Sequence record: DRR378314_1513
Strand: one strand, 5' to 3'
Length of the DNA: 64,000 nt
The notes beneath the pieces were generated by a model, which was not told the origin of the DNA, did not search any database, and was given only the letters and a program-made list of their open reading frames with translations. Shown one piece after another: positions 36 through 61,632 of the stretch (the stretch's first letter is position 1; each line of letters begins with the position of its first letter). The position numbers and the translations under genes were made by a program.

Positions 36-605
36 TCAATCAGCAGAATGATCGAGACCAGCCAAACTCGCAGCAGGTACCGGCTCCAAGGCGGTATTCA
101 ATGTCGAGTTCCAGCGGTTCAGAAAGCCAAACAGGGAAATCACGCTCACAATTTCGATGATTTGGGAGTTGGTGTAGTATTCTCTCAATCGAGCGAAGTC
201 AGCTTCACCGGCCTCATTCGGAATGCGTCCGGCTTTTATGGCAAGATTTATTGCCGCACGCTCTGCCTCAGTGAACAGCTCGCTGTCTTCAAACGTCCAT
301 ACTGCCTCGATCTTCGCTGGATCTACTCCACGCTGCCGCGCGCCATGGGCGGCGTGAGCCGAACAGTAGAAACAGCCTGCCGCCTTGCTTGCGGCCTCGC
401 CGATCAGCCGTTTCAGGCCCTGGTCAACTTCACCTGAACCATAAATCGACGACACAAGCCCCCACATTGCCCGCAATACATCAGGCTGATGGGCCATGAC
501 GAGCGCATCATTTGGCACAAACCCCATCAGGGTTTCCGCGTTCTGGATCATTTCTGCGGTCTCGCCGGAAACCTCATCAATGGACAGAGGCTCAACCCGC
601 GTCAT
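36..605 (-). CDS. Carboxymuconolactone decarboxylase/AhpD-like peroxidase-related protein
   Basis: GCFYCSAH (CxxCxxH) and FTEAERAA/FGFLNRWN motifs; start moved to MTRVEPL (ATGA overlap with upstream stop). Confidence 0.8.
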   Translation of the reverse strand: MTRVEPLSIDEVSGETAEMIQNAETLMGFVPNDALVMAHQPDVLRAMWGLVSSIYGSGEVDQGLKRLIGEAASKAAGCFYCSAHAAHGARQRGVDPAKIEAVWTFEDSELFTEAERAAINLAIKAGRIPNEAGEADFARLREYYTNSQIIEIVSVISLFGFLNRWNSTLNTALEPVPAASLAGLDHSAD

Positions 606-1507
606 GACGCTGTGCTTGGCGCGACATTGCTCGCAAAGTGAGACGCGATGTCCTCGCGGGTAGCAATCCAAACGTCATCGAACTGATTGGCGTACTCGAT
701 GAATTCCCTGAAAGCCCAAATACGCCCCGGGCGCCCGATGATCCGAAGGTGCAACCCCAAACTCATCATTCGCGCGCCTAAAGTGCCAGACTCCTCACGC
801 AGAACGTCAAACGTTCGTTTCGCGTAAGACAGCCACATATCTGGCGTGAAAGACGGTGATAGCCAGAACTTCATGTCATTGGAGTCGATCGCGTACGGCA
901 ATATCACCATCGGCCTCATACTTCCGTCTTCCATCTCGGTTGCCGCCCAGTATGGGAAATCATCAGAATAATCGTCCATATGGTACGAGTATCCCTGCTC
1001 GAGAAGGATACGCCTGGTTATATCCGTATGGAGATATCTTGACAGCCAGCCAGATGGCCGACGACCTGTCGTTTCCAGAATGGATTTCGTCCCCTTTTGA
1101 ATGAAGGCACGCTCTTCATCCGGAGACATGAAGGCCGTGAAGTTCCACTTGTGGCCGTGATTGCACGGCTCATCACCACGTTCCGCAATTGCCTTACCGA
1201 GCCAGCGAGCCTTCTCAAGCGCTTGCCCGCACACAGTCCAGGTCGCAGGAACATTCGCCTCGTTCAAAATCCGGAGAACACGGGGTGCTCCCTGATTGAT
1301 TCCATACTGGTAATTGGACTCATTGCCATGAATTCGGATTGGCTTCCCGGGGACTGCTCCCAATTCATCGACGGGCTCTGGACGTTTGTCACCCTCATCG
1401 ATTCGGCGTTCAGCGCCTTCTTCAACGTTGACTACAATCGACAAGGCTAACTTCTTGCCATCTGGCCAGGAAAAGTCTTTAGGCGCGGGATCCTGCCAAG
1501 ATTGCAT
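602..1507 (-). CDS. Polysaccharide deacetylase-fold protein, PuuE (allantoinase)-like
   Basis: WPDGKKLALSIVVNVEEGAE, ESNYQYG, NHGHKW, MMSLGLHLRIIGRPGR; start MQSWQD couples to SDR stop (TGATG). Confidence 0.85.
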   Translation of the reverse strand: MQSWQDPAPKDFSWPDGKKLALSIVVNVEEGAERRIDEGDKRPEPVDELGAVPGKPIRIHGNESNYQYGINQGAPRVLRILNEANVPATWTVCGQALEKARWLGKAIAERGDEPCNHGHKWNFTAFMSPDEERAFIQKGTKSILETTGRRPSGWLSRYLHTDITRRILLEQGYSYHMDDYSDDFPYWAATEMEDGSMRPMVILPYAIDSNDMKFWLSPSFTPDMWLSYAKRTFDVLREESGTLGARMMSLGLHLRIIGRPGRIWAFREFIEYANQFDDVWIATREDIASHFASNVAPSTAS

Positions 1508-2346
1508 CAGTGCGGCTCCTCGCCACCGGAAACATTCATACTTTCTGCGGTAATGTATCCTGCCTGATCCGTACACAGCCATGCGACAGCATTGGCCGTA
1601 TCTTCTGGCAGTCCTGGACGCCCCATCGGGATGCGCTTGGCCATGGCGTCCATGTAGTCCTCAATCGAACCCGCGCCGGTCACCTTCGCGAAGTACTCAT
1701 TCTGCCAGGCGCCCAACCCTGTTGTGACGTGATTGGGACACACATTATTGACGGTGATCTTGTGCGGTCCCAACTCAATTGCGGCCGAACGGACCAGCCC
1801 AACCAAGCCGTGCTTGGAACTGGAGTAAGCCTGAGCGTGCGGGAAGCCCGACTTGGCAGCTTGAGACGCGATATTGATTATGCGTCCCCCACGCCCCTGC
1901 TTGACCATCTGCTCTGCCGCGGCTTTCAGACCGAAAAAGGAACCAGTCAGGTTCACGTCGATAACCGCGCGCCAGTCAGCCTCAGTAACTTCCAACAGCG
2001 GCTTCATGATGTAGCCGATACCCGCATTGTTTACCCAGATGTCGATGCCGCCATGCTCTGTCTCAGCATGCGCGGCAAGCGCGCGCACTTCGTCAAGGCT
2101 GCGCACATCGCAAGGACACGTCGAAACCTTTGCCCCCAACTCACGAAGCTCGGTTGCGATCCCCTCCATCTCATCGGAGGTACCGATATGCTCTTCCCCC
2201 GTAGCGGAATCGCGGGAGGTTCCGATGTCGGAAAGGACAATACTCGCTCCGTCAGCCGCCAAGCGCCGAGCAATGGCCTCACCAAGACCAGCGCGCCTGC
2301 CTGAGCCAGTAATGACAGCAACTTTTCCTGCAAGTGGTTTGCTCAT
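1507..2346 (-). CDS. Short-chain dehydrogenase/reductase (SDR)
   Basis: TGSGRRAGLG, NNAG, YSSSK catalytic motif; AGGAG RBS. Confidence 0.93.
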   Translation of the reverse strand: MSKPLAGKVAVITGSGRRAGLGEAIARRLAADGASIVLSDIGTSRDSATGEEHIGTSDEMEGIATELRELGAKVSTCPCDVRSLDEVRALAAHAETEHGGIDIWVNNAGIGYIMKPLLEVTEADWRAVIDVNLTGSFFGLKAAAEQMVKQGRGGRIINIASQAAKSGFPHAQAYSSSKHGLVGLVRSAAIELGPHKITVNNVCPNHVTTGLGAWQNEYFAKVTGAGSIEDYMDAMAKRIPMGRPGLPEDTANAVAWLCTDQAGYITAESMNVSGGEEPH

Positions 2347-2357
2347 GACTACTCCTG

Positions 2358-2672
2358 CTAGCCCAATTTTTCAGTAAGAATGAAAATGAGGTCTGACGTC
2401 ATTGCCTGAAACTCAGCCGCAATTTTTTGCATTGCGTCGGTTGAAACGTCTCCACCAAAGCCATCCATGTCGTTCACATCAATTGTTTCGATGTACTGGT
2501 ATGGAGACTTGTCGTCCGTACCGAGCATCCCGGTGGCCTTGAACACTTCGAAGGCGTCCACAGACTTCAATCCATTCACAGTTGGAATGTCCTTTGATTT
2601 CGCCCAAGCCTCGTAATCCGCGACCGAACACTCCGGCTTCAAATTGAACAATGCGATGATTTTCTGGGACAC
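2358..2672 (-). CDS. REDY/HapK-like small dimeric alpha-beta barrel protein
   Basis: IIALFNLKP..DYEAWAK..DIPTV..PYQYIE pattern; GTG start at 2672 (alt 2681) after GGAG. Confidence 0.7.
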   Translation of the reverse strand: MSQKIIALFNLKPECSVADYEAWAKSKDIPTVNGLKSVDAFEVFKATGMLGTDDKSPYQYIETIDVNDMDGFGGDVSTDAMQKIAAEFQAMTSDLIFILTEKLG

Positions 2673-2702
2673 TTGCTCCACTCCTGATAAGCTATACCCA
2701 AC

Positions 2703-2716
2703 AATGGTATACCATT
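2703..2716. promoter_or_regulatory. Perfect palindrome AATGGTATACCATT, GntR/FadR-type operator candidate
   Basis: 14-bp palindrome in AT-rich DNA about 30 bp upstream of the HapK-SDR-deacetylase-CMD operon. Confidence 0.55.
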
Positions 2717-2768
2717 ATTAGATTATTGATAGTCTCGAAATTCCTGCATCCATCATAGACCGTACAGA

Positions 2769-3068
2769 CTACGTGTCCGGCTGCTCAACCACGACAATCT
2801 GCGCAGTCGAAAGCTCTTTCCGAATGCGTTTCAAGTCTTCGTATTCTGGCGAATTCCACAGGGTTTCAAGAGCCTCGCTCGTCGGCCACTTGCTGACGAC
2901 GACGCTGGTATGCTCATCCAGATCACCCTCGAGGCATTTCAGCTTCGGAGCCCTGACGACATATTCTCCACCATATGTGGCGACGAGTTTTGCCGTAGGA
3001 ATGGCGTATTCGCTGACAAACCTCTCACGATCGTGAATCTTGCAGAAAACAATCTGGTAACAGGCCAT
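2769..3068 (-). CDS. DUF1330-family protein
   Basis: YGGEYVVR..LEG..WNSPEY..LKRIR pattern; ATG 3068 after GAGGAG. Confidence 0.8.
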   Translation of the reverse strand: MACYQIVFCKIHDRERFVSEYAIPTAKLVATYGGEYVVRAPKLKCLEGDLDEHTSVVVSKWPTSEALETLWNSPEYEDLKRIRKELSTAQIVVVEQPDT

Positions 3069-3229
3069 TGTGGAACTCCTCAAAATGCTGGTAGATCATC
3101 GCAACTAAATGATATATCCTTTGATAAGGGCTTTTTTGCCCGCGGCAAAGCCCCAATCGCACGCGAATGCGTCGGAACTTGAGATTGCCGAAAGCCAGTC
3201 CACCCATGTCACTTCGAGGCCACCAGAGA

Positions 3230-4237
3230 ATGAAACTGATTACCCTTAAAAACGCGATTGATACCAAACCGCAGGCGTCGGACTTTGTAACGATTGAGGC
3301 CGAAACGCCGCAATGTCCGGATGGGGGCGTTCTGGCGCGCGTGGTGCACTTGTCCCTTGATCCGTATGTTGGATCGCGGGTGCGTGGCCGTCATATGGGT
3401 GAGAACGCGCCCACGCCAGGGCAAGACCCCATTCCGGGCGCCATCGTCGGCGAAGTACTCGAGTCACGGGCGGAAGGTATCAAGCAGGGAGATTGGGTCC
3501 ACTCCATGGAAGGTGGTTGGCAGGAAACTGTTGCCCTGCAATCAGGACACTTCAGAAAGCTCAATCCTGATCAAGCCCCCCTCGCCTCCCATGCCGGTAT
3601 TCTGGGTATGCCCGGACTTACCGCATGGGCGGGTATCACGCAGCTGGCGAAAGTCGGAAAAGGTGACACAGTCCTCGTCAACGCCGCTGCCGGCCCGGTC
3701 GGCGGAACGGTTGGACAAATCGCCCGGATCAAAGGCGCGAAGCGCGTCGTTGGCATCGCAGGCGGCGACGAGAAATGCGGTATCGTCACAAATTCATACG
3801 GATTTGACGCGTGCATCGATTACAAGAAAGAGAATTGGAAGGAAGCGCTGAAAGAGGCGCTGCCGGATGGCCTGTCCGTCTTCTTTGAGAACGTTTCTGC
3901 CGAGATGGCGATGACCGCTCTTGAGAATGCCCAACTTTATACGCGAGGTGTACTCTGCGGCCTGGCAGCAGCCTACCACAGTCCAACGGCGTCCAGTCAC
4001 GCTCTCAATATGGGGATGATTATCGGCAAAAGGGCACAAATGCTCGGTCTTGTAGTTTACGATTTCTATCCTCGCTGGGATGAATATGTAGACGAAGCCA
4101 GTCACTGGATCGAAAGTGGTCAGTTGAAGTTTGTTGAGGACCGGGTAACTGGCCTGGAGCATGCTCCAGCCCTTTTCGAGCGTCTGATGAATGGGGAAAA
4201 CCGCGGAAAAGCGGTGGTGACCGTAAGCGCAGAGTAG
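3230..4237 (+). CDS. NADP-dependent oxidoreductase (MDR; prostaglandin reductase/CurA-like ene-reductase)
   Basis: LSLDPY, LGMPGLTAW, AAAGPVG, GIAGGDEKC, GENRGKAVV. Confidence 0.9.
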   Translation: MKLITLKNAIDTKPQASDFVTIEAETPQCPDGGVLARVVHLSLDPYVGSRVRGRHMGENAPTPGQDPIPGAIVGEVLESRAEGIKQGDWVHSMEGGWQETVALQSGHFRKLNPDQAPLASHAGILGMPGLTAWAGITQLAKVGKGDTVLVNAAAGPVGGTVGQIARIKGAKRVVGIAGGDEKCGIVTNSYGFDACIDYKKENWKEALKEALPDGLSVFFENVSAEMAMTALENAQLYTRGVLCGLAAAYHSPTASSHALNMGMIIGKRAQMLGLVVYDFYPRWDEYVDEASHWIESGQLKFVEDRVTGLEHAPALFERLMNGENRGKAVVTVSAE

Positions 4238-4241: not shown

Positions 4242-5042
4242 ATGGTTCGAGTACGGCGGGAGTATGTAGAAGGGAAGTATGGGCAGATCCATTTATGGGT
4301 CGCCGGCGAAGAAACGCCGGGTGTGTTACCCTTGTATTGCGCACACCAGAGCCCCAAACATGGTGGCGAATTCTCAAACTTCATGGCAGCCGCAGGAGAA
4401 CACCGCCTCGTAGTTGCGCCTGATTATCCCGGTTATGGGATGTCTGATACTCCGCCGAATGAATCCGACGTCACAATCGATTTCTACGCGGAGTCACTGT
4501 GGTCTGTGGCTGATCAGCTGGGACACTACAAAATTGATCTATTCGGAAACCACACCGGCTCTAAAGTGATCTCGGCGATGACGATGGCGCAGCCAGAGCG
4601 TGTCGGAAGCCTTATCATGATCTCAGCGACTATTCTGACCCCAGATGAACACAAAATGTTCAACGACTATTTCCAGCCCGTTCCGCTGGATGATGCAGGC
4701 ACCCGTTTCCGCACCATGTGGGAACGCATCGTGGAGCGCCGTGGTCCTGGCGCGACTATGGAAATGATGGCGCGCTCATTCGCTATGAATCTCATGGGCG
4801 GGGAAGCATACGAATGGGGCCATCACGCTGCATTCGCCTGGTGGAAAGAGGAAGAGCACGCCCTTCAGACTCTCCCGCACAGAATTACCATTCTAAATCC
4901 CAACGACGATTTGACTGAATGCACACGCAGAGCCGCCCCAATGCTGAGGAACGGGAAGATAATTGAATTGCCTGAATGGGGCTATAATTTCATGGATGTG
5001 TGGCCGGAAGAGTCAGCACAATTGGTGCTCTCCAATCTATAG
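4242..5042 (+). CDS. Alpha/beta-hydrolase fold protein with non-canonical elbow (GNHTG)
   Basis: APDYPGYGMSD; HQSP; GNHTG at the GxSxG position. Confidence 0.85.
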   Translation: MVRVRREYVEGKYGQIHLWVAGEETPGVLPLYCAHQSPKHGGEFSNFMAAAGEHRLVVAPDYPGYGMSDTPPNESDVTIDFYAESLWSVADQLGHYKIDLFGNHTGSKVISAMTMAQPERVGSLIMISATILTPDEHKMFNDYFQPVPLDDAGTRFRTMWERIVERRGPGATMEMMARSFAMNLMGGEAYEWGHHAAFAWWKEEEHALQTLPHRITILNPNDDLTECTRRAAPMLRNGKIIELPEWGYNFMDVWPEESAQLVLSNL

Positions 5043-19375: not shown

Positions 19376-19377
19376 GC

Positions 19378-20792: not shown

Positions 20793-20806
20793 GTCAAGGA
20801 ATCCCC

Positions 20807-21988: not shown

Positions 21989-22007
21989 AAACACCGGATA
22001 CTCACTC

Positions 22008-37605: not shown

Positions 37606-37626
37606 TCCGATCAAGGATCTGGTTTC

Positions 37627-48769: not shown

Positions 48770-48934
48770 GTACCGCACTGGCCCTTAATATCCAGTGATA
48801 GTTCGGGAGAAACTGCTCACATGTTCGTTACAACTCGGTGAGAGATTGCGTTTCGCCTCAAAGCGGAATGCAGTCAGTCAACAACGGACATATGCCGGCC
48901 AAGCGCGGTCACAATGTGTCGCCATACGTCGCGC

Positions 48935-50311
48935 CTACGCCCCAGCCTGTATGACTTGCGCCGGATCGCCTCTGTGCACCTCTTCCGGCAGCCCCTCGAT
49001 CTCTTCGTCAACTGCCTCAGAGCCGAAGTCGGGATAGCGGCCCAACAAGAGAAGCACTGCTCCACCAGCCAAAACAATGATCGCACCGCTTGAGAGCGCC
49101 AGGGTGTAATTCCCGACCGTATCATACAGGTAGCCATAGGTGACCGGTCCGACGCCGCCCGCCACCGCGACGACGGTGTAAAAGCAGCCATAGATCGTGC
49201 CATATTTTCTTTGGCCGAAATATCGACTGACCAGATAGGCCAAGAGGTCGAATTCAAACCCAGCACCGAACCCAATCCCCGCAACAGCCAGGAAGGCTGC
49301 TCTCTGCGAAATGTCCGGCAAGGTCAGCGCCCAACACCCGGCGGCGGGGATAAACAGGATCAACAACGCGCAAAGCGGCGCCCAGAATTTGTCCAGCATC
49401 CATCCGCCGAGCAGGCGACCAGCAATAACCGCCAAGCCAAAACTCGCCGTAATGCCGCCAATCTGCGCCAGTGAGAATCCCTGAGTGCGAAGGATATTTT
49501 CCAGATTTGGCGTCGGTGCAGTCAGCGCAAACGCGATCAACAGGAATGACAGCGCGATGACCCAGAAATTCTTGTGCATCAGCGCTTGCTTCAGCGTGTA
49601 CCCAGGCAAAACGGGTGCTGTCTGTATTGCCGAGGCTGAAGGGCCATCCTCCCGCACAGGGGCAGCCTCGACGACATTCTGCTTTTCCTTCAGGAACAGC
49701 AGGACAATCGGAAGACCGATCACAATCGGCAACATGCCGATACATACAAAGGCCATTCGCCATCCAAACTGTTCGATCAGCATCGCAGTGTACGGCTTGA
49801 TCAGAAATCCTGTGAAGCCGGTACCTGCGCTGGCCAGGCCGAGCGCCAGCCCCTTGTTCTTGTCAAACCAGCCGTTCACCACCGACGTCCAAGTGGCTGA
49901 CAGCGTTCCGGCACCGAGAGCCGCCATGACCGTCCACTGAAGGTACAACATCAACAAGGACCCGTTGTTGAGCGACAAGCTCATAAAACAGATTCCGAAG
50001 CTGGTCAGCGAAACTGTCGCCACCTTTCGCGCCCCGAACCTGTCCACACAATAGCCCGCCAACGGGCTTATGATCATGATGACCACGCCCTGAATCGCGA
50101 TGACCACCATCAGGGACGAGAAGCTCCAGCCGAAATCATCTGCCAACTCAGGGGCAAACATCCCGATCGTGTAAAATGGTATAGGACTAAGCCCAACGGA
50201 CACGCCAACCATGGCGGCGATGACAACCAACCAAGCTTGTATCGAGTTGCGTTTGTCGGCGGAGGCAGAAGAGGAATTTTTAGAAATGATTTCACCGTTC
50301 AGGGTAGACAC
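48935..50311 (-). CDS. MFS transporter (OFA/monocarboxylate-like)
   Basis: GYCVDRFGAR; WFDKNKGLALG; about 12 TM segments. Confidence 0.88.
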   Translation of the reverse strand: MSTLNGEIISKNSSSASADKRNSIQAWLVVIAAMVGVSVGLSPIPFYTIGMFAPELADDFGWSFSSLMVVIAIQGVVIMIISPLAGYCVDRFGARKVATVSLTSFGICFMSLSLNNGSLLMLYLQWTVMAALGAGTLSATWTSVVNGWFDKNKGLALGLASAGTGFTGFLIKPYTAMLIEQFGWRMAFVCIGMLPIVIGLPIVLLFLKEKQNVVEAAPVREDGPSASAIQTAPVLPGYTLKQALMHKNFWVIALSFLLIAFALTAPTPNLENILRTQGFSLAQIGGITASFGLAVIAGRLLGGWMLDKFWAPLCALLILFIPAAGCWALTLPDISQRAAFLAVAGIGFGAGFEFDLLAYLVSRYFGQRKYGTIYGCFYTVVAVAGGVGPVTYGYLYDTVGNYTLALSSGAIIVLAGGAVLLLLGRYPDFGSEAVDEEIEGLPEEVHRGDPAQVIQAGA

Positions 50312-50410
50312 GCGACAACGATTATCGCAGCAATAGTTATATTAATATATCATTTTAAATACGCGCGATATTCCTGTCTAGGATATTGTCGAACTGGCGG
50401 GAAAACTCAC

Positions 50411-52105
50411 ATGGCAGGCTACTCTTCGGGCGCAACTGATCAAAACAGAAACATCAGGCGAGCATTCGTATCGGTCGGGTCCAAGAAAGTTCACTACAGG
50501 GTTTGCGGTTCGGGACCGGCAATCGTCCTGCTCCACGATTCTCCGCGCTCCTCCCGTCTGCACACACCAACCATGCTTGGTCTTGCAAACTCCTTCACCG
50601 TGTTTGCCCTTGATACGCCAGGATATGGCAATTCCGACCCGCTAGGTATCGAACAGCCTGAAATCGGCGACTTTGCAGATGCACTTGATCAAGCGTTGGG
50701 CGCACTGGGATTGAGAGATGTGCCTCTGTACGCAACCCACACCAGTGCCAAGATCGCCCTGGATTATGCCGCGCGCTACTCAGGGCCGCCCCGACTGATC
50801 CTTGATGGTCTTTCAATCCCCACATCGCCAACGCCCCCAGACTTCATCGCAGCGTATATGCGGCCATTCGTGAAGGACGATGATGGCGCCTTCATCGCCA
50901 AGGAATGGATCCGGGTGCGCGACATGCTGCGCTGGTTTCCGTGGTTCAATCCGGACGCATCCAAGCGCATGCAGCTTGAAGTTTCGCCGGACTGGGTCCG
51001 CGATTACACGCTCGATCTGTTCGCGGCAGGCCCACATTACTCAGATGCCTACGCCGCGGCGATGCGATATGATCCAAAACCGGCTCTGCTTGGGGTAACA
51101 ACTCCGACAGTAGTGGGGGCGAAATCTGACGATGTCCTGTTCGACAGTCTTCAGCGTGTCCCAACCGACAAGAACTCAAATCTGGAAACGGCCCCCCTTT
51201 CGGCTGACCGTGAAGAATGGCTCGCATGGTTGATCAAAGAGTTGGGACAAAGTGCCAATGAAAGCATTTCGTCTGCGAAATCCTCTTCCACATTTGATGA
51301 CGACCACGTGTATGTAGACGTCAATGATGGCCAGATATTCGCACGGCAATATGGCGATGCTGCGGCCCCCAAAGTTCTCGTTCTGGATACGCCGTTCCTT
51401 GTGCAGGGTCAGCAATGGGCTGAAGCACTCAAACAGGATTACCGCATCATCCTGCCTGACCTGCCGGGCTTCGGGGAATCCGATGCGCTGAATTCCATCC
51501 TTCCCGAAAGCTTTGCGCGCGCAATTAACAGCTTGCTGACTGAACTCTCCGACACGCCTGTGGCTGTGCTCGCGACGGGTTATGCTGCGCCCCTCGCAAT
51601 CCTGCTTGCGCACAAATACCCACATAAGGTTCGCCAACTGATTATAGATGGGGGCGCTAGCCAGAAATCCTTCCCGGAGGCCTCGGATTTGGATGAACTG
51701 GTTCCGTGTTTCGAATTCAGTCACGCAGGATCGCATCTCCACGAGACCTGGCACATGCTAAGAGACAGTCAGGCAAGCTGGCCTTGGCATGACCGCTCGA
51801 ACAACGCGCACCGCAAGATCGAACCGAAATTCGAACACCCCTATCTGTACGACAGTTTCATGGGCGTCCTGAAACAACCTGCGCACTATGGTGATGCCGT
51901 TCGTGCAAGCTTCAGCGCTGCAGCCGACCTGCCTGTTCCGACCCAAGACACCCTGTTCCTCGAACTGGAAAACGACCCTGCATTTTGCGATCTCCGGTCC
52001 TTGTCAGACAAATGGCCCGCCGCGCGAACCACTTCCAGAGCGGCCGATATTTCAAACTCCGTGGACGTGGTGCTGAACTTCCTGTCTACGGAGAGTCAAA
52101 CATGA
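50411..52105 (+). CDS. Tandem two-domain alpha/beta-hydrolase fold protein
   Basis: DTPGYGNSD and DLPGFGESD; domain 1 HDSP and ATHTS; domain 2 degenerate. Confidence 0.82.
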   Translation: MAGYSSGATDQNRNIRRAFVSVGSKKVHYRVCGSGPAIVLLHDSPRSSRLHTPTMLGLANSFTVFALDTPGYGNSDPLGIEQPEIGDFADALDQALGALGLRDVPLYATHTSAKIALDYAARYSGPPRLILDGLSIPTSPTPPDFIAAYMRPFVKDDDGAFIAKEWIRVRDMLRWFPWFNPDASKRMQLEVSPDWVRDYTLDLFAAGPHYSDAYAAAMRYDPKPALLGVTTPTVVGAKSDDVLFDSLQRVPTDKNSNLETAPLSADREEWLAWLIKELGQSANESISSAKSSSTFDDDHVYVDVNDGQIFARQYGDAAAPKVLVLDTPFLVQGQQWAEALKQDYRIILPDLPGFGESDALNSILPESFARAINSLLTELSDTPVAVLATGYAAPLAILLAHKYPHKVRQLIIDGGASQKSFPEASDLDELVPCFEFSHAGSHLHETWHMLRDSQASWPWHDRSNNAHRKIEPKFEHPYLYDSFMGVLKQPAHYGDAVRASFSAAADLPVPTQDTLFLELENDPAFCDLRSLSDKWPAARTTSRAADISNSVDVVLNFLSTESQT

Positions 52106-53484
52106 CCCAAGACACCGAGATCTCACCATCCGGCGTGAACACGGAATTACCGGAGGCCAGCATAAACTGGCCGAACGCCCGCTACGCCTGGTATGTTATC
52201 GCGCTTCTGACACTGGCCTATGCGCTCGCCATTCTCGATCGCGTATCAATCGCCCTACTGATTGAGCCCCTCGAACACTCACTTCATCTGACAGATACAC
52301 AGTTCGGCCTGCTTCAGGGAATGGCATTCAGCCTGTTCTACAGCGTCCTCGGATTGCCGCTAGGGCTCCTCTGTGACCGGACCAAACGGACCCCCATACT
52401 GGTAGGCGGGATTGCCCTCTGGAGTCTGGCAACAATGGGTTGCTCGCTCGCCTCGACATTCGAGGAATTGTTCGCTGCCCGCGTTCTCGTGGGCGTGGGG
52501 GAAGCGTCGCTTGTTCCTGCTGCAGCTTCCCTGATCGCAGACTTCTTCCCGCCGACAAAGAGACCGAAAGCGTATGGTGTCTTTGTGACGGGCAGTACAC
52601 TTGGCTCAGCAGCAGCGTTGCTGCTAAGCGGCCTGTTCCTGCACTGGTCCGAAGATCTGATTGCCTCTGTTCCCGACCTTTTCGGAGGCTTCGAGAACTG
52701 GCAACTGGTCTTCATCATGTGCGGAATTCCGGGCGTTTTTCTCGCGCTCATCATGTTTCTCACGATGCGCGAGCCCAAACGCCAAGGCATCGAAGTTACG
52801 GCAACCGAGTTCAGCCTGAAGCCCATACTGAAGCTATTTGCACAGCGCCCTGTCGCGTTCGGCACGCTCATTATCGGAACTGCGTTCAATCTGGTGTGTG
52901 TATACGCAATCATCGGCTGGATGCCTGCGCTGTTCATTCGAGTACATGAATGGGAAGCGGCAACAACCGGTCAGATACTCGGAATGGTCGGAATGCCGAT
53001 CAGTATTTTTGCTGCCATCAGCAGTGGTTGGGTCATCTCATGGCTGACCAAAAAAGGTCACAAGGATGCCCCGATGATTGCCGCGGCAGCGTGCGGCGTA
53101 TCCATGCTTGTCTTCGGCACAGCAACCAGCCTGGCACCATCCGCCTTGCTTGCACTCTTGGCCTACGCAATGAACGCGCTTTTCGTGAACTGGAACATTT
53201 CGTCTGTTTACTCTGGTGTCGCGCAAATCTCACCGAACCAGCTACGTGGTCAGGTAATGGCGCTGCACACAATTGCCTCCAGCCTGATCGCAATGTCGGC
53301 GGGCAACTTCATTGTCGGCTTCCTGACCGACACATTCTTCACCTCGCAACAAGGGCTCTCCTATGCCTTGGCGATTGTCTTCTCCGTATGCGGCACCGTA
53401 TCAGCCCTGATCCTGATGTTCGGCCGACGCGCATTCCGGGAAGCGGCAGTCGCCAACGAAGAAAGACTAACATCCAATGACTGA
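52102..53484 (+). CDS. MFS transporter (spinster-like)
   Basis: LDRVSIALL, DTQFGLL, RVLVGVGEA; ATGA overlap. Confidence 0.9.
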   Translation: MTQDTEISPSGVNTELPEASINWPNARYAWYVIALLTLAYALAILDRVSIALLIEPLEHSLHLTDTQFGLLQGMAFSLFYSVLGLPLGLLCDRTKRTPILVGGIALWSLATMGCSLASTFEELFAARVLVGVGEASLVPAAASLIADFFPPTKRPKAYGVFVTGSTLGSAAALLLSGLFLHWSEDLIASVPDLFGGFENWQLVFIMCGIPGVFLALIMFLTMREPKRQGIEVTATEFSLKPILKLFAQRPVAFGTLIIGTAFNLVCVYAIIGWMPALFIRVHEWEAATTGQILGMVGMPISIFAAISSGWVISWLTKKGHKDAPMIAAAACGVSMLVFGTATSLAPSALLALLAYAMNALFVNWNISSVYSGVAQISPNQLRGQVMALHTIASSLIAMSAGNFIVGFLTDTFFTSQQGLSYALAIVFSVCGTVSALILMFGRRAFREAAVANEERLTSND

Positions 53485-55084
53485 CACGATTGACCAAACC
53501 GCTCCGACATCCGGCACTCTCGACGCAGATCTTCTCGCACTCTTGGGTCCGGACGGATTTCTCACGGATCAGGCAACGTGTGAGCTTCACTCTTCTGACC
53601 TGCTGGAAACCGCCGGGGATTGCCGCGGTGTCATCCGACCGTCCAGCAAGGAAGAATTGTCCCAGGCTGTCGCAGTCCTTTCCGCGGCCAAAGTTCCGAT
53701 GGCGCCTCGTGGCGGCGGGCTGACCTATGTGCGCGGCTACACCATGCCGAAGGACGGGTTTGTATCCGTGGATCTCAGCCGGATGAACCGGATACTCGAG
53801 ATCAACGACCAAGACATGTACATCACCGTTGAACCGGGCGTGACCTGGAGAGAGATTTATCTCGCACTCAAACCGAAAGGCTTGCGCCTGCCTTTCTTCG
53901 GAACGTTCTCCGGCCGTGGGGCAACGGTTGGCGGCGGCCTTTCCAATGGTGCCTTGTTCTTGGGGACAGCGCGCTACGGTACAGCCGCCGAAATCGCGAT
54001 CGGCCTTCAAGTCGTTACGGCTGACGGCTCAATCATCCGTACAGGTCAGTTGGCGGTGAAGAATGCCTCCAAGCCCTTCTTCCGAACTTTTGGCCCGGAC
54101 ATGACAGGCGTATTCATTCACGATGCCGGCGCACTCGGCATCAAGGCTCAAGCGACCTTTCGCCTGATCAAGGACCCGGCTGTAACAGAGTATCTGTCAT
54201 TCGGCTTCCGCGACCGCGCAGCAGTACTAGAGGCCTTGTCCGAAATTGGTCGGTCCGAAGTCGCTGAAGAAGCATATGTGATGGACCCCGATAAAACGAA
54301 GGCAGCCCTCAGTGCCGATATGGACCTTGTTCGAGACGCCAAGGTCCTCGCGAAAGTGGTTCGTCAGGAGAAGAATCTGCTTCGCGGCATGAAAGCGGGC
54401 GCAAAGCTCGCCGCCTCGGGTCGCGGCATTGTGGAGGATGGTTGTTTCTCGATGCACCTCGTCTTGTCCGGACGAAGCCGTGCCGCCGTCGAAGAAGACA
54501 TGAAGCAGGCACGCAAGATCGCGGCAGATCATGGAGGCGAAGAACTGCCAGACTCGATTCCGCGTGCAACTCGCGCTGACTTGTTCCCATCTCTGGACAC
54601 GAGCATCGTGGGCCCGGATGCGGATCGCTGGGTCGCCCTGAACGCCAAAGTCGCACACAGCGACGCGCCCCCCTTGGTGGAAGCTGTCGAAAGCTGCATT
54701 GATGCGCACATGGATGAGTTCAAGAAGCACGGTGTTGTCGTCTCCCGCCTCCTGACCATCATCGGCACGCATTGCTTCAGCTATGAACCTGTCTTCAACT
54801 GGCGAGACACTTGGCTGCCCTTGCACCACGCGACGCTGTCAGACGAAGCCAAGCGGAAAACAATAGAGCCAGCCCCGAATCCAGAAGCTCGGGAACTCGT
54901 CATGAAAGTCCGCCAACAGATTGTCGATATCTTCACGGAGCATGGCGCAGCCTCCAATCAGATCGGGCGCACCTACCCTTATGCAAGCATCCTGCATCCT
55001 GAGTCGGCCAAATTCCTGAAGGCGGTAAAATCGGCGGTGGATCCGGACGGGCTCGTAAATCCCGGCGCGCTGGAACTCAACTAG
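53477..55084 (+). CDS. FAD-binding oxidoreductase (VAO/PCMH-GlcD superfamily)
   Basis: PRGGG, DLSRMNRI, VEPGVTW, ATVGG, DPDGLVNPG. Confidence 0.88.
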   Translation: MTDTIDQTAPTSGTLDADLLALLGPDGFLTDQATCELHSSDLLETAGDCRGVIRPSSKEELSQAVAVLSAAKVPMAPRGGGLTYVRGYTMPKDGFVSVDLSRMNRILEINDQDMYITVEPGVTWREIYLALKPKGLRLPFFGTFSGRGATVGGGLSNGALFLGTARYGTAAEIAIGLQVVTADGSIIRTGQLAVKNASKPFFRTFGPDMTGVFIHDAGALGIKAQATFRLIKDPAVTEYLSFGFRDRAAVLEALSEIGRSEVAEEAYVMDPDKTKAALSADMDLVRDAKVLAKVVRQEKNLLRGMKAGAKLAASGRGIVEDGCFSMHLVLSGRSRAAVEEDMKQARKIAADHGGEELPDSIPRATRADLFPSLDTSIVGPDADRWVALNAKVAHSDAPPLVEAVESCIDAHMDEFKKHGVVVSRLLTIIGTHCFSYEPVFNWRDTWLPLHHATLSDEAKRKTIEPAPNPEARELVMKVRQQIVDIFTEHGAASNQIGRTYPYASILHPESAKFLKAVKSAVDPDGLVNPGALELN

Positions 55085-55093
55085 GAGACTTTC

Positions 55094-55915
55094 ATGGCCC
55101 GCCCGCATATTGAATTCATCCAAACTCAGAATGTGGACTGGTCACCGTCGGCAGATGGATCAGACTGCAAGATCCTGAACGCAGACCCTGACAGCACCGA
55201 GGCCACGCTGATCGTGCGCTACCCTCCGGGCTATTCAGCCCCCGCTCATTCGGGAACAATGCCCGCGGAAGAGTACTTCGTCCTTGAAGGCAGTCTGGAA
55301 ATTGGCGGAAAGCCCCGCAATTTGCACGATTACGGCTTCCTTCCCGGCGGCAGCAAGGCTCCGTCTCGGACATCGGAACAAGGCGCGACGGTTCTGATCT
55401 TCAGATATGCGAAAGATGATCCGGACAGCATGGAGGGAGTCGCTGAGGCTATATCGCTGAATACAAGCACAATCCCCTGGGACACGACCGGTTTCGATCC
55501 GAATCTCGAACACCTCAGGATGGCCCGGAAAGTTCTGCGTGAGGCACCGAACAATAGCTGTCGAACCTGGCTCATGGTCGGGATGCCGCACGGCGTGCCC
55601 TCAAAGTCAAAGCTGCCCGCCGAAACCCATGATCATTGCGAAGAAATGTTCATGATATCAGGATCGATGTGGGCGCCTGAAGGCCACATGCAACCAGGTG
55701 CATACTTCTTCCGCCCCCCACATATCCTTCATGGGCCGCATGTTTCTGAAATGGGCTTTTTCCAGATCATGCGATCCCCCATGACGAACAAAGTCTACAC
55801 ACATTGGTCCGACGAACATCGCCCCTTGCCAATCGGAGCCACTCACGACCCTGTCGTACCAGACGGAACCCCCGCTTCCTGGACACGCCCATGGCGGCCT
55901 TCTGCAGACTATTAA
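55094..55915 (+). CDS. Two-domain cupin (DUF4437/ChrR-like)
   Basis: EEYFVLEG; ETHDHCEEMFMISG; YFFRPPHILHGP. Confidence 0.75.
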   Translation: MARPHIEFIQTQNVDWSPSADGSDCKILNADPDSTEATLIVRYPPGYSAPAHSGTMPAEEYFVLEGSLEIGGKPRNLHDYGFLPGGSKAPSRTSEQGATVLIFRYAKDDPDSMEGVAEAISLNTSTIPWDTTGFDPNLEHLRMARKVLREAPNNSCRTWLMVGMPHGVPSKSKLPAETHDHCEEMFMISGSMWAPEGHMQPGAYFFRPPHILHGPHVSEMGFFQIMRSPMTNKVYTHWSDEHRPLPIGATHDPVVPDGTPASWTRPWRPSADY

Positions 55916-55940
55916 CCTGCTATTGCTGAGTTTGCACACA

Positions 55941-55972
55941 AAAAAGAAGGGCTGCCAATTGGCAGCCCTTTT
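55941..55972. terminator. Bidirectional intrinsic terminator
   Basis: AAGGGCTGCC-AATT-GGCAGCCCTT with A tract left and T tract right, between convergent genes. Confidence 0.85.
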
Positions 55973-55999
55973 CGATTCAACGTTCAACGGCATACGCCG

Positions 56000-56728
56000 C
56001 TAGCTACGCTTCAACTCAACCAGCTCGTACCAGGTCATCATGTACCCGTCGACGCCGCCTTTGAGGAAGATGGCATCTTCGTCTGCGGTGACCCAGCAAT
56101 GATAATCAGGGTGGGACTTTCCATTTGGTCCAACCATACCGCCACTTTCATCCGTGAAGCGATAATAATAGGCATCGAACGTACCGGCAGCGACCGTGAC
56201 TTCTTCACGCCCCTCATAGATCAGCTCCATGGTGGTTTCCGCCAGCAATGGAGGCGTGGCACCGCGGTGATCTGGAGAAGGAAGGAAGGTACGAAGCTTG
56301 TGGATTGGCGCACCTTCGGAGCGATCGACCTTCTTCGTAATGTAAGCATCACCAGCGATTGGGTGCGTACCAAAACCATCGTACGAGCCATTGGTCGGCA
56401 TGGTCTGGGAAACGCGTCCGATGGACGGCCCATAGCTTTCACATTCGATCTGGTCTTCCAGCATGCGGAACCAACCAGATCCCATGAACTCGTCGCCGAT
56501 CGTCAGACGAACAAAGCAGTCCATCGGATTGTCATTCTCGTCGACACTGTAGATGATATCGCGGTGCACCGTCGGATCCGGATCTTCAAGTTCACAGCGG
56601 GCACGAAGCGTGCGCTTGCCATCAGAATGAATAGTCCAGTTGAAAAACTCCCGACCGCGCTCTTCCCCCTCGCGTCCCGGCTGTCGGGACGTGTAGAGAA
56701 TTTTTCCGTCAATTGTTCTATGTTTCAT
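56000..56728 (-). CDS. Hypothetical protein, beta-rich
   Basis: 242 aa; AAGGA RBS; in operon; no family recognised. Confidence 0.75.
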   Translation of the reverse strand: MKHRTIDGKILYTSRQPGREGEERGREFFNWTIHSDGKRTLRARCELEDPDPTVHRDIIYSVDENDNPMDCFVRLTIGDEFMGSGWFRMLEDQIECESYGPSIGRVSQTMPTNGSYDGFGTHPIAGDAYITKKVDRSEGAPIHKLRTFLPSPDHRGATPPLLAETTMELIYEGREEVTVAAGTFDAYYYRFTDESGGMVGPNGKSHPDYHCWVTADEDAIFLKGGVDGYMMTWYELVELKRS

Positions 56729-56758
56729 GTGTTATCCTTCTCTCCTTATATCGATTGA

Positions 56759-57415
56759 TCAGATGGGCGTTGCAATTCCGAGATAGCTGGCAACGAGCAC
56801 CAACACCCAAATCATCATCACGGCTGGGCGCGTCTTGTAGATTACGTCTGACAGGGCCTTGTCGGTTTCTGGCGTAGGCCCCTCTGAAGTCATTTGGGCA
56901 ATGGCCGGCCCGAGGGGAGTCAACATACGGCGAATGATCAGACCCAGCCCGATACAGCAACCGAGGGCGAGGAATTTCAATGCCACGAATAGCGGCAGGT
57001 CAATGGCGCCAGCCAGTCCCATGATGCCACTCGCAAACAGGCCCGCTAGAATGAGATAGCGCAGCAAGAGGTCGACGGGACGCGTCCAAGTGTTGCCTTT
57101 TCCATGGCTGAGATGAACGGACCAGGCGAGGGCGAGCCACACAAGGCCGATGATCCACACAGCCCCCACCAACAGCGGCGATACCATGAGCCAGCCTTTG
57201 ACGACCGCCAGGGTAAAACCAGTTGGGAAGGCCAAAATCAAGGCGGTGCGCGGTGCCATGTCGATATCGTTCAGTATCTTCAAAGACAGCATTCGTTCCG
57301 GAACCGTACGCTTCGGGTCCAGCAGAAATCCTGAACCGTAAAAAGCGCCCAAATCGCCTCCGAGCCAGTAAATTGGAATGAGAATGTGTAGAAGCGTAAG
57401 GAGTGCAATCTCCAT
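56759..57415 (-). CDS. Hypothetical integral membrane protein
   Basis: About 6 TM segments; LHIL..YWLGGDLG; 1 nt after upstream stop. Confidence 0.75.
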   Translation of the reverse strand: MEIALLTLLHILIPIYWLGGDLGAFYGSGFLLDPKRTVPERMLSLKILNDIDMAPRTALILAFPTGFTLAVVKGWLMVSPLLVGAVWIIGLVWLALAWSVHLSHGKGNTWTRPVDLLLRYLILAGLFASGIMGLAGAIDLPLFVALKFLALGCCIGLGLIIRRMLTPLGPAIAQMTSEGPTPETDKALSDVIYKTRPAVMMIWVLVLVASYLGIATPI

Positions 57416-57416
57416 T

Positions 57417-58274
57417 TTATTGTGTCTCCACTGAATTCATTAGAGCAGTCATTGCCGTCTTGCGAGCGGTTGAGAACGTGGAGTCATCAAACCGGGGAAG
57501 CTGTACGAAGTTCCCGCCTTTCAACGCTTTTGCGGAACTCCTGGAGGTTTCGAGCAACGGATCATTCTCTGCAGAGATCACCATTGCTGGCACATTCACC
57601 AATGGGAACCGGTCGAAGGCCTGCCAGCGAAAGGCTGCGCGATAGTTATTATGATATGTCTCGTTCGCCTTCAGCACTTCCAGCACCCAGGCCTTGATGT
57701 CTTCAGCGCTTCCCAAGCCGTTATCCCGGCGGAACTCACGTGTGCGCTTGTACCACGGGAAGAACATGTATTGATCGCGGCAGAACTGAAATATCTTTAT
57801 GAGATAGGCGCCTTCCAGATCGGCCGGAAAAGGGAATGCATAGGTCGACATAAGATCATCAAACTCAGCCGGGCTCAGAACCATGACCCCGTCTGCGACC
57901 AAGCTTCGCACGCGCTCAGGCGCAAGGATCGCGAGTTCTGTCGCGATCGTCCCACCAGTGTGAGATCCGTATACATCAGCCTTCTCGATCCCCATGGCAT
58001 CCATGAAATCGAGCATTGCCTTGGCCAGATCGGTGATCTCCACAGTTTCCAGAGACAGCGGATCGCTATCACCATTCCCAGGCGTATCTGGTGCAAATAC
58101 CTGTCCGACATCGGCGAAATCAGAGATCAGCTTCTCAAGCTGCTTCGAACTGCCAGGGGACGCGTGGAGAAACAGGAGCGGGGTGCCCTCACCCACTGTT
58201 CTGTAGTGCATCTGGCCGTGCGGGACATCTACGAAACCGCGCCGAATCTTCTTGGTATCAGACAAAGGAATCAT
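57417..58274 (-). CDS. Alpha/beta-hydrolase fold protein with non-canonical elbow (GSHTG)
   Basis: HASP; DTPGNGDSD; GSHTGG; start uncertain (58265-58325). Confidence 0.85.
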   Translation of the reverse strand: MIPLSDTKKIRRGFVDVPHGQMHYRTVGEGTPLLFLHASPGSSKQLEKLISDFADVGQVFAPDTPGNGDSDPLSLETVEITDLAKAMLDFMDAMGIEKADVYGSHTGGTIATELAILAPERVRSLVADGVMVLSPAEFDDLMSTYAFPFPADLEGAYLIKIFQFCRDQYMFFPWYKRTREFRRDNGLGSAEDIKAWVLEVLKANETYHNNYRAAFRWQAFDRFPLVNVPAMVISAENDPLLETSRSSAKALKGGNFVQLPRFDDSTFSTARKTAMTALMNSVETQ

Positions 58275-58305
58275 CTCCCGGAAAAAAGTTTGTGCCGCAC
58301 GCCAT

Positions 58306-59193
58306 TCAGGATGCGCGCTCAACAACTTCGAACAAGGCTCCGTCAGGACACCTCAGGACGCCGGCGCACTTTCCGCCATAGAGCGGCCCGTCCCGAACCG
58401 TGGGCTCAGACACCCAATGGCCGTGCAGCCGGTCGAAACCCGGAAACTCGATCGTGGTGATGGCAACACCGGGCGGAAGCTCTCCAGGCCGCGCCTCGCG
58501 CTTGGTTACCTCTTCTGGATACTGATCTAGCTCAAGGAAGACCTCCCCCTTCCATTTCGCTGTCACCAGTTCTGTTTTTTGATCTTTCGGGAGATTGAAC
58601 GCCAGAGTGATCATTGAATACTCAATAGCGATCGGGTCGATCATCTCAAATCCGAACACTTCCTTCACCCACTCAATTGAACGGGCAAGGTCACTACATG
58701 CCAGCACCATAATGAATGGGCGATCGACCAGTGATTGGGGCTCAGGCAAGCCGCTTGCGGGGTCATCCACCTTGATTTCGGTCAGGTACACAATCTCTTT
58801 GTCCGGACCACGCACCTGCATTGGCTTTACGGTCGGAAAGCCATCCAAAGGCTTCGGCGGACCAATAATATCAAAAGGTGATTGCTCCATACGGGCATTG
58901 ACGACTTCAACATCCTGGACGCAGATTTCAGTCGCAGCCCAGCCAAGCGTTCTTATTGGCTCGTAGGATTCGACTGGCTCGCCTTCGACGAATCGCAGGA
59001 AAACTTCCTGTCCTGATACTGGCTGCAATACGGCATAGGGTTTGCCTGCCGAATTTGGTGCCCCCCAACTTGCCGCCAGGTCAGCGGGAACCTCACCCGA
59101 CTCAACTACGCTGTAGTCGAACCATTTCTCATACCGCTCCACCGTTTCGGAAACGGTACCGACGACCCAAGTTGCACATTTCAATAGCGTCAC
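58306..59193 (-). CDS. VOC/glyoxalase superfamily protein (two-domain)
   Basis: GWAATEICVQDV, GPDKEIVYLTE, CPDGALFEVVE; GTG start after GAAGGGG. Confidence 0.72.
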   Translation of the reverse strand: MTLLKCATWVVGTVSETVERYEKWFDYSVVESGEVPADLAASWGAPNSAGKPYAVLQPVSGQEVFLRFVEGEPVESYEPIRTLGWAATEICVQDVEVVNARMEQSPFDIIGPPKPLDGFPTVKPMQVRGPDKEIVYLTEIKVDDPASGLPEPQSLVDRPFIMVLACSDLARSIEWVKEVFGFEMIDPIAIEYSMITLAFNLPKDQKTELVTAKWKGEVFLELDQYPEEVTKREARPGELPPGVAITTIEFPGFDRLHGHWVSEPTVRDGPLYGGKCAGVLRCPDGALFEVVERAS

Positions 59194-59227
59194 GTAACAA
59201 ACCCCTTCGGCGCGCATACACAAATCT

Positions 59228-59251
59228 TATTGTTATATGGCTATAACAATA
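59228..59251. promoter_or_regulatory. Operator-like perfect inverted repeat TATTGTTATA-N4-TATAACAATA
   Basis: 10-bp arms; same core at 61613-61632. Confidence 0.7.
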
Positions 59252-59270
59252 TGGCAAGCGGGATTCAGAA

Positions 59271-61321: not shown

Positions 61322-61612
61322 ATCAAACGCGAGTTCATCAATTGGTGCACCCCTGGCAGAATAAAGCTGCCCAGTATCGCCTTCCAATTCCGTAAACGCT
61401 TTCAATCCTTTCGCCTCTTAGCGGGAAACCTGATGGAGACCTGAGCCTCCTTCGAGAGCCGGACAATCAATGCGGGCGTCGCCTAAGATGCGCTGCACGC
61501 TCATGCCAGAGAGATCCAGCCTCGACGTTATGACGCGTTGCGCTCAATTGCGCGAAAGCGTCTCTCGAAACATGCATCCAGCCGTAAATCACTCTCGACT
61601 CTATACGTTTAT

Positions 61613-61632
61613 TTGTTATATTTGAATAACAA
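61613..61632. promoter_or_regulatory. Operator-like inverted repeat TTGTTAT-N6-ATAACAA
   Basis: Perfect 7-bp arms between divergent leuC-like and amidase genes. Confidence 0.7.

Follow-up and report, generated by a model that had tools for sequence, protein, structure and literature searches.

The window, the whole stretch of 64,000 nucleotides that was analysed, carries three genes, here called A, B and C, whose products have the alpha/beta-hydrolase (ABH) fold and a histidine at the nucleophile elbow (Table 1).

Table 1. Positions of the His-elbow genes, their elbow codons and neighbouring genes in the window
Feature	Position	Strand	Remarks
A-type island remainder	36..4237	both	CMD, PuuE-like, SDR, HapK-like and DUF1330 genes, all on the - strand, and the + strand gene of the next row
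NADPH ene-reductase-like gene	3167-4237	+	directly upstream of A
Protein A, 266 aa	4242..5042	+	His-elbow ABH fold; H35 and S37 (HQSP), H104 and T105 (GNHTG), cap H194, D222 (NDDL); Y248 (LPEWGYN) occupies the canonical His position
Elbow His104 codon of A (CAC)	4551..4553	+	
MFS transporter	48935..50311	-	divergent from B; 62% to pJE1 counterpart
Protein B, 564 aa	50411..52105	+	two fused domains in tandem; domain 1 intact with S44 (HDSP), H110 and T111 (ATHTS), Y214, D241 (SDDV) and LSADREE; domain 2 degenerate with LDTP, ATGYA and Gly390 at the elbow, without HxSP
Elbow His110 codon of B (CAC)	50738..50740	+	
MFS transporter	52102..53484	+	64% to pJE1 counterpart
FAD-linked oxidase	53477..55084	+	FAD_binding_4 and FAD-oxidase_C
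Bicupin	55094..55915	+	Cupin_7 / DUF4437
242-aa protein	56000..56728	-	no Pfam match; pJE1 counterpart annotated DUF3108 (67%)
218-aa hydrophobic protein	56759..57415	-	no family match; conserved beside C
Protein C, 285 aa	57417..58274	-	His-elbow fold; S39 (HASP), H105 and T106 (GSHTG), Y211, D238 (NDPL), LPRFDDS; no His after strand 8
Elbow His105 codon of C (CAC)	57960..57962	-	
VOC/glyoxalase-like	58306..59193	-	weak Pfam match, pJE1 homolog only
LeuD-like hydratase/isomerase subunit	59271-59888	-	
LeuC-like hydratase/isomerase subunit	59885-61405	-	
Isochorismatase-family amidohydrolase	62133-62792	+	
PuuE-like deacetylase	62792-63691	+	
Second PuuE-like gene	from 63691	+	ends at window edge (64000)

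All three products score above the cut-off of the Pfam Abhydrolase_1 model, and the elbow, HxSP-loop, Asp and C-terminal motifs quoted in a first-pass annotation were found in each of them as given, including an Asp after strand 7. In AF2 models (pLDDT 95.8 for A and 94.1 for C), His104 of A and His105 of C sit at the junction where strand 5 ends and the following helix begins. A full-length profile alignment of the His-elbow family to 6i8w and 1a88 was also made; relative to 6i8w, GnHTG is aligned with GNSMG, the Asp with the post-strand-7 Asp and the Y248 position of A with the His of the GH motif. A, the first domain of B (B1) and C are confirmed as ABH folds with a His at the elbow and without the usual catalytic His. 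A shifted register with Ser104 as nucleophile was rejected; position 104 varies (T, F, S, A, Y, D), and both alignments and models place the His at the apex. The description of three such genes holds for their motifs, but B is a tandem whose second domain lacks them and probably serves as a structural or binding partner without catalysis of its own. An independent contig covers positions 48906-63999 with 238 substitutions and no gaps, so B and C are not an assembly artefact. In one metatranscriptome, 20 of 30 bins received low-depth fragments, which is no demonstration of transcription.

Conservation of the active-site residues

The elbow His is kept in 120 of 120 C homologs, 119 of 120 A homologs (one gap) and 120 of 120 B homologs. 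Since A, B1 and C share only 28-32% pairwise identity, this His is not a matter of chance, and its near-invariance bears out the view of the first-pass annotation that a pattern shared by three paralogs is under selection. The 78 loci of a contig scan, whose pattern fixed HTG, were left out of these counts. The Ser of the HxSP loop (Ser39 in the numbering of C, used hereafter) is kept in 120/120 C, 118/120 A and 120/120 B homologs. A conventional triad elsewhere was not found in the sequences, which contain no GxSxG, and near the site there is no further His common to A, B and C. The absence of the usual C-terminal His holds for A, B and C themselves but is not family-wide, as the Y248 position carries Tyr in 99 and His in 16 of the 120 A homologs.

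The family comprises 1,584 clusters (50% identity, E<=1e-30). The elbow His is carried by 161 of the 292 domains examined in 150 diverse representatives, and these 161 also retain the other polar residues of the site more often: Ser39 is present in 131/161 His domains vs 23/131 His-less domains, Thr106 in 145/161 vs 40/131, Tyr211 in 125/159 (a further 13 carry His) vs 26/118, and Asp238 in 149/154 vs 56/90. The whole set, Ser39, His105, Thr106, Tyr211 and Asp238, decays jointly in degenerate fused domains. Asp238 may be structural, given its presence in more than half of the His-less domains. Some members persist without any His domain, as 15 of the 150 representatives have none. After correction for kinship the covariation keeps its direction and is mostly not significant: across nine supported contrasts the median p is 0.25-0.5 for Ser39, Thr106 and Thr64, and across 32 contrasts using all branches p is 0.125 for Ser39, 0.167 for Tyr211 and 0.219 for Asp238, with Thr106 alone significant (p=0.013, uncorrected).

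Where a protein has only one His domain (105 cases), Asp238 (101/102) and Tyr211 (100/105) are kept best, followed by Thr106 (97/105) and Ser39 (88/102). Ser39 is replaced in 14 of 102 such domains (Ala in 4, Gly in 3, Cys in 2, Thr in 2, others in the remainder), several of which have His, Tyr and Asp intact. Tyr145 and Tyr207 are conserved along with Tyr211 in this set. In 9 of 16 A-like domains a His lies 22-31 residues downstream of the Asp; taken together with the canonical His of some A homologs, this suggests that the Asp may be occupied there.

Other shared His residues were considered as base and rejected. His23 and His37 lie in N-terminal strands or a loop and are frequent in His-less domains as well, and position 157, His in most representatives, is Tyr in C, Phe in B1 and Arg in A. 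A family-wide metal site is not supported, the extra His residues (H194 in A, H208 in C, H51 in B) being lineage-specific.

Comparison with known ABH proteins

Canonical ABH enzymes lead the structural matches; 1a8s matches A with Z 29.4 (rmsd 2.2, 248 aligned) and C with Z 27.3 (rmsd 2.7, 250 aligned). Haloperoxidase, aryl-esterase and enol-lactonase structures (1a8s, 3om8, 4uhc) and PlaF (6i8w) share the fold, the cap position and the post-strand-7 acid over about 250 residues (Z 26-29, rmsd 2.2-3.2), but at 12-23% identity, and they have a Ser elbow, an HG loop and the strand-8 His. Epoxide hydrolases and fluoroacetate/haloalkane dehalogenases (3r3u, 7jqx, 6y9g) are among the best sequence matches and resemble the family in an HGxP-type loop with Pro and in a Tyr of the last cap helix within an NxYR-like motif; in a MAFFT alignment, the lid Tyr of one epoxide-hydrolase-like sequence was paired with Tyr207, with Tyr211 as the other candidate counterpart. 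In contrast to A, B1 and C, with their elbow His and no canonical His, these enzymes have an Asp nucleophile and the canonical His. No solved relative above 23% identity was found in sequence and fold searches, and in the alignments inspected, which represent part of the matches, the elbow is Ser or Asp.

Escherichia coli RutD (3v48, TIGR03611; Z 24.9 and 25.3) is an ABH fold likewise lacking a classical nucleophile and has an isochorismatase-family amidohydrolase as operon neighbour. In its structure, described in 2012, a His reportedly fills the spatial position of the nucleophile. The match is not exact: in the RutD elbow, G-H-A-L-G, the Ala is aligned with the family His and the RutD His lies one residue earlier, and RutD retains the strand-8 His (GGH), unlike A, B1 and C. 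With TIGR03611 (cut-off 238.5), C scores 34.9 bits and B 25.3 bits, and the model is not among the 11 families listed for A. RutD is proposed (PMC8113886) to accelerate spontaneous hydrolysis, and by analogy it is a possible model of how the His-elbow proteins work.

ABH proteins that work with a His-acid dyad, namely carboxy-lyases of the MKS1 type and cofactor-free dioxygenases such as HOD/AqdC, use the strand-8 His; in the His-elbow proteins, from which that His is missing in A, B1 and C, the only candidate is the elbow His. The 2024 ABH classification (PMC11878206) describes the catalytic His as totally conserved and recognises Ser, Asp and Cys nucleophiles and nucleophile-less His dyads, with nothing else listed; its section 2.7 attributes Ser-free catalysis by a D/E-H dyad to certain carboxy-lyases and to cofactor-free dioxygenases. 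Table S1 of that work could list a cluster of the present kind; literature searches gave no relevant paper among the matches listed, and the ESM Atlas gave generic names only.

Probable catabolic islands around the His-elbow genes

The genes around B and C show gene-for-gene synteny with a 42-kb island of plasmid pJE1, and also with G094 and G021. The pJE1 island contains two PuuE-like hydrolases, an isochorismatase-family amidase, two LeuCD pairs and an enzyme resembling methylisocitrate lyase (253 bits, under the cut-off of 354), as well as CaiB with HMG-CoA-lyase-like genes, and PrpD-like and oxoprolinase-like genes. A-type islands hold PuuE-like, CitE-like, mesaconyl-CoA-hydratase-like, acyl-CoA dehydrogenase and amidase genes. 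The VOC/glyoxalase-like gene lies within the retrieved flanks at 19 of 30 close C-ortholog loci, and at 48 distant loci the island genes are mostly missing. Island genes absent from the window could lie elsewhere in the source genome. The conserved island, the degenerate domain of B and the cap Tyr or His are observations that the first-pass annotation did not contain.

The islands likely serve the degradation of a ring compound that contains nitrogen. Their combination of imide/amide hydrolases, LeuCD-like hydratases and C-C lyases suggests the catabolism of alkyl-maleimides or alkyl-succinimides, and the neighbouring genes point to an alkyl-substituted maleate or succinate, formed from cyclic imides or lactams, as the putative end product. 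The substrate is possibly, though speculatively, derived from tetrapyrroles. Bilins, chlorophyll or heme fragments would then be the starting material, and the duplication of the PuuE-like imide hydrolases and LeuCD pairs, along with the presence of two different C-C lyases, would match two kinds of ring, methyl-vinyl/ethyl-maleimide and hematinic acid imide, the latter being converted via methyl-homoaconitate to pyruvate and glutarate; the A-type island would take the reduced, succinimide rings. The TonB receptor of the island lends this idea no support, as it scores higher with a siderophore model (116 bits) than with a heme model (64 bits), both under cut-off.

Proposed chemistry and its alternatives

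A, B1 and C are likely non-covalent acid-base enzymes acting in the conserved catabolic pathway, where they would cleave a bond of an intermediate with a nitrogen ring. For their mechanism we tentatively favour, at somewhat less than even chances, an elbow His-Asp general base combined with a Ser/Thr anion hole and a Tyr or His of the cap as acid, without a covalent intermediate. The elbow His would extend into the space vacated by the lost strand-8 His and pair with Asp238, so as to activate water or deprotonate the substrate. As the anion develops, it would be held by the Ser39 and Thr106 hydroxyls, while the leaving group would receive its proton from the cap Tyr, or from the His that replaces it in the A lineage. 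In the ABH fold, PMC11878206 assigns the oxyanion hole to the residue after the nucleophile and to residues after strand 3, which are the two positions held here by Thr106 and Ser39. Against this mechanism stand the mostly non-significant covariation after kinship correction, the presence of Asp238 in many His-less domains, its possible engagement by another His in A-like domains, the members without any His domain and the distant loci from which the island genes are mostly missing.

The same residues could instead form a relocated triad in which Ser39 is the nucleophile, activated by His105 and Asp238, and a covalent acyl-enzyme is made. All three residues are present, Ser39 is nearly invariant among the homologs of A, B and C and, in raw counts, it is the position tied most strongly to the elbow His. 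Its poorer retention than that of Asp238 and Tyr211 argues against it as nucleophile, as does its loss from sole-His domains that are otherwise intact. Moreover, because Ser39 sits where the oxyanion hole is usually supplied, such a triad would need a new hole. The relocated Ser-His pair of the first-pass annotation is thus weakened, and we regard it as unlikely while still a serious candidate.

That both classical catalytic residues are missing also suits a binder or carrier whose polar pocket holds or senses a reactive or hydrophobic pathway intermediate without turnover. Consistent with this, the cap residues Trp162, Arg166, Pro173 and Trp174 are retained in His-less domains too, a tenth of the representatives have no His domain at all, and A has a weak match to NDRG/Ndr (PF03096; 21.4 bits, under the gathering cut-off of 23.3), for which B and C gave no match at E<=0.001 and some homologs carry precomputed matches. 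Against it, five near-invariant polar residues occupy catalytic positions and decay jointly in fused second domains, and each island has two or three divergent copies of the gene, set among genes for catabolic enzymes and not next to signalling genes; we consider a binder or carrier distinctly unlikely.

His105 could itself be the covalent nucleophile, forming an acyl-, phospho- or sulfo-imidazole, with Ser39 and Thr106 as an enlarged anion hole. It stands exactly at the nucleophile position, both oxyanion positions carry hydroxyl side chains, and C homologs have invariant Arg residues (R166, R177, R183, R261, R271). This is quite improbable: A lacks most of these Arg residues, the neighbours indicate carboxylate or imide rather than phosphoryl chemistry, and the longer side chain would probably occupy the space of the substrate carbonyl. 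Most improbable is a cofactor-free oxygenase like HOD/AqdC, in which O2 would react with a substrate anion generated by the His-Asp base; its base chemistry is identical to that of the mechanism we favour, AqdC (6ra2) matches A (Z 24.9, rmsd 3.0, 249 aligned) and the annotation of the pJE1 island includes no Rieske or flavin monooxygenase, but the match ranks only 47th in a list of generic ABH folds, the His of HOD-type enzymes is that of strand 8 and the cupin, VOC-like and HapK-like neighbours could provide any oxygenation.

The elbow nucleophile and the strand-8 His are textbook constants of the ABH fold, and the His-elbow family swaps both. Its members are routinely annotated as ordinary esterases, for example as 'pimeloyl-ACP methyl ester carboxylesterase', and these labels are therefore likely wrong. 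Should the proteins prove to be enzymes, they would extend the chemistry of a much-engineered scaffold. In its widest form, this would be a new catalytic class, with a nucleophile-less elbow His-Asp base, cleaving intermediates of an undescribed aerobic pathway for the mineralisation of tetrapyrroles, which we think improbable. The His-elbow genes mark a catabolic island of about 35 genes in Sphingomonas sp. JE1, Novosphingobium and Caulobacter, so that its substrate can be tested in named strains by deletion and growth screens.

Genes, fold and conservation of the histidine elbow

All motifs quoted for proteins A, B and C in the first-pass annotation were found in their sequences, and Pfam Abhydrolase_1 exceeds its cut-off in each of the three. 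None of the NCBIfam models listed for them reached its own cut-off. Pairwise identity among their alpha/beta-hydrolase (ABH) domains is 28-32%; in the second domain of B, LDTP replaces HxSP, and the elbow, the nucleophile position after strand 5, is occupied by Gly390. The genes are not assembly errors, since an independent contig covers 48906-63999 without gaps. The closest named homologs come from Hyphomonas, Henriciella and Hirschia.

Features of the window
Feature	Position	Strand	Length	Description
A	4242-5042	+	266 aa	ABH protein
	9957-16154			1184-aa autotransporter-domain protein, then Omp85/POTRA protein
	16164-26560			two-component system, EF-hand ORF, Dioxygenase_C-like gene, CusB/CusA/OEP-type efflux set
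	31471-37077			ImuB-like (IMS) and DnaE2-like polymerase genes, unassigned 246-aa gene in front; probably an SOS mutagenesis cassette
	37159-38568			148-aa ORF and 313-aa glyoxalase-like gene
B	50411-52105	+	564 aa	ABH protein, two ABH domains
C	57417-58274	-	285 aa	ABH protein

Confident AF2 models (pLDDT 94.1 for C and 95.8 for A) place the elbow His between strand 5 and the following helix. In a full-length profile alignment to 6i8w, the family His falls on the Ser of GNSMG. The same profile pairs D222 of A with the Asp after strand 7, and Y248 with the GH-motif His. Structure searches matched canonical ABH enzymes throughout (identity 11-23%), and no solved structure of a family member turned up.

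Conservation was counted in the best 120 homologs per query, of 1277 (C), 195 (A) and 349 (B) matches in total. The elbow His is retained in 120/120 (C), 119/120 (A, one gap) and 120/120 (B), the loop Ser in 120, 118 and 120, and the strand-7 Asp in 120, 119 and 120, respectively. The motifs are thus conserved among homologs, and the earlier argument that the same pattern in divergent paralogs reflects selection holds for domains only 28-32% identical. The His-elbow pattern is real, selected and family-wide. At the canonical strand-8 His position the same A homologs have Tyr in 99 cases and His in 16, so the family can do without this His but has not lost it everywhere; some A-lineage members retain both histidines.

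A 31-sequence profile (E<=1e-30) recovered 1,584 clusters at 50% identity. The best 150 are mostly tandem fusions, with at least one His-elbow domain in 135 and none in 15. A 499-aa tandem member in the nearest genome, G001 (locus L084, G001:C56 about 57253-58674), has GAATG and GRGLG and an elbow His in neither domain. Across the Caulobacterales-type family of that genome, C-like matches occur in 6/151 genomes and A-like matches in 30/151.

The His-elbow proteins are members of the ABH fold outside every catalytic class tested, and would represent a known fold with a new elbow variant, whose chemistry is putative. Their nearest conceptual precedent is RutD, whose structure paper reportedly describes a His in the spatial position of the nucleophile. 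By sequence, the architecture of RutD differs: Ala occupies its elbow, a His precedes that Ala by one residue and the strand-8 His is retained, whereas the family has His at the elbow itself. RutD, working next to an amidase of the isochorismatase family, was proposed to accelerate a step that also runs spontaneously (PMC8113886). A 2024 ABH classification covers Ser, Asp, Cys and nucleophile-less dyads in its section 2.7, with no His elbow there (PMC11878206). We found no description of the family in the mostly open-access literature covered.

Residues that track the elbow histidine

We compared intact with degenerate domains of tandem fusions, using the 292 of 299 domains that cover both sites. 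The elbow is His in 161 and another residue in 131 (Gly in 68). In C numbering, the residues found in His versus His-less domains were Ser39 (131/161 versus 23/131), Thr64 (113/161 versus 15/131), Thr106 (145/161 versus 40/131), Tyr211 (125/159, plus 13 His, versus 26/118) and Asp238 (149/154 versus 56/90), raw counts that overstate independence. Cap residues Trp162, Arg166, Pro173 and Trp174 are retained in both groups. When the trait columns were left out of tree building, the elbow His changed state at least 32 times. Over all 32 contrasts the five residues went in the expected direction, with only Thr106 reaching an uncorrected p=0.013; for the 9 contrasts on supported branches, no median seen was significant.

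GxGxG elbows such as GVGAG occur in many His-less domains of proteins P0361-P0507, and PF03096 matches recur among the homologs. This elbow resembles the NDRG motif, and a link of the degenerate domains to the origin of NDRG pseudo-enzymes is possible.

A single His domain, presumed to be the working one, occurs in 105 proteins; among these, Asp238 is present in 101/102 and Ser39 in 88/102 ungapped rows, Tyr211 in 100/105 and Thr106 in 97/105. Ser39 substitutes include Ala, Gly, Cys and Thr.

Our tentative preference is for an elbow His-Asp base with an anion hole and a cap acid. The elbow His and strand-7 Asp would form the general base, substituting for the lost strand-8 His. Ser39 and Thr106 would add hydroxyls at the two positions that make up the ABH oxyanion hole (PMC11878206; PMC7034887). 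Tyr211 of the cap would be the acid, a role that His194, retained in 120/120 of the best 120 of 195 homologs, would take in A. The reaction would then be hydrolysis in one step or a lyase-type cleavage, and no acyl-enzyme would form. The strand-7 Asp may be partly structural, as it is still present in 62% of His-less domains.

The relocated Ser-His pair proposed earlier finds agreement in the conserved Ser, His and Asp. However, a true nucleophile would be expected to vary no more than the acid does, and Ser39 varies more than Asp238; an anion-binding role therefore seems to fit Ser39 better, and a relocated triad with the loop Ser as nucleophile is unlikely. Slightly less probable is a non-catalytic binder. 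We doubt still more that the His is itself modified covalently, and a cofactor-free oxygenase is the most improbable of these readings.

Probable catabolic islands around the genes

The B/C block comprises MFS, B, MFS, FAD oxidase, cupin, DUF3108-like, membrane protein, C, VOC-like, LeuD, LeuC, isochorismatase-family and two PuuE-like genes. At 46-88% identity it matches a 42-kb island of pJE1, a Sphingomonas plasmid. Gene order is shared, with exceptions: the DUF3108-like gene has the orientation of C in window and plasmid alike, and the window lacks CaiB/HMG-CoA-lyase-like genes. Genomes G094 and G021 hold nearly the entire island. In these two and in pJE1, leuC and the isochorismatase gene are separated by CoA-transferase III and HMG-CoA-lyase-like genes, which the window is missing at 61405-62133; independent contigs cross this junction. 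A 159-aa ORF at 61633 has no family match and may be spurious.

By tblastn of flanks up to 8 kb, neighbours were counted at 30 close C-ortholog loci versus 48 distant loci: VOC-like 19 versus 1, FAD oxidase 17 versus 9, DUF3108-like 16 versus 2, PuuE-like 15 versus 5, isochorismatase 13 versus 4, LeuC 11 versus 5 and CaiB 11 versus 7. A SAM methyltransferase and a small unknown protein (locus L001, 33478-35066, and related loci) recur in both islands, in 17 and 8 of 78 loci, which is unusual for catabolism. A homolog of the 148-aa ORF was found in another His-elbow locus, L080.

The sister island of A contains ene-reductase, VOC-like, HapK-like, SDR, PuuE-like, CitE-like lyase, mesaconyl-CoA hydratase-like, acyl-CoA dehydrogenase, CoA transferase, PrpD-like and amidase genes. 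In four loci (G093, G069, L006 and L013) an A-type gene lies immediately 5' of a C-type gene. The C-type gene right after the A-type gene at G069:C37:271708-272163 has a 171-aa frame with a TAG within the match and is possibly broken. In L083/L119 (G001:C61 about 100246-100767) a 96% identical A copy spans residues 93-266 only, and a GntR-like gene stands where the window has the ene-reductase; this copy reads as a truncation or rearrangement.

PuuE-like enzymes open cyclic imides, maleamate is hydrolysed by isochorismatase-family enzymes and alkylmaleates are hydrated by LeuCD homologs. PuuE itself is described as an allantoinase that evolved through recruitment of a polysaccharide deacetylase (PMC9863593). 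The joint presence of PuuE-like, isochorismatase-family and LeuCD-like genes suggests that the islands open N-heterocycles with five or six ring atoms, yielding alkyl-maleate and alkyl-succinate. Because imide hydrolases, hydratases and lyases are doubled, two tetrapyrrole ring types would fit; against this idea, the island receptor is not heme-like. Methylpyridines, pyrimidines, alkaloids or dimethylbenzo rings may be the substrates instead. The pathway context of the His-elbow proteins is testable.
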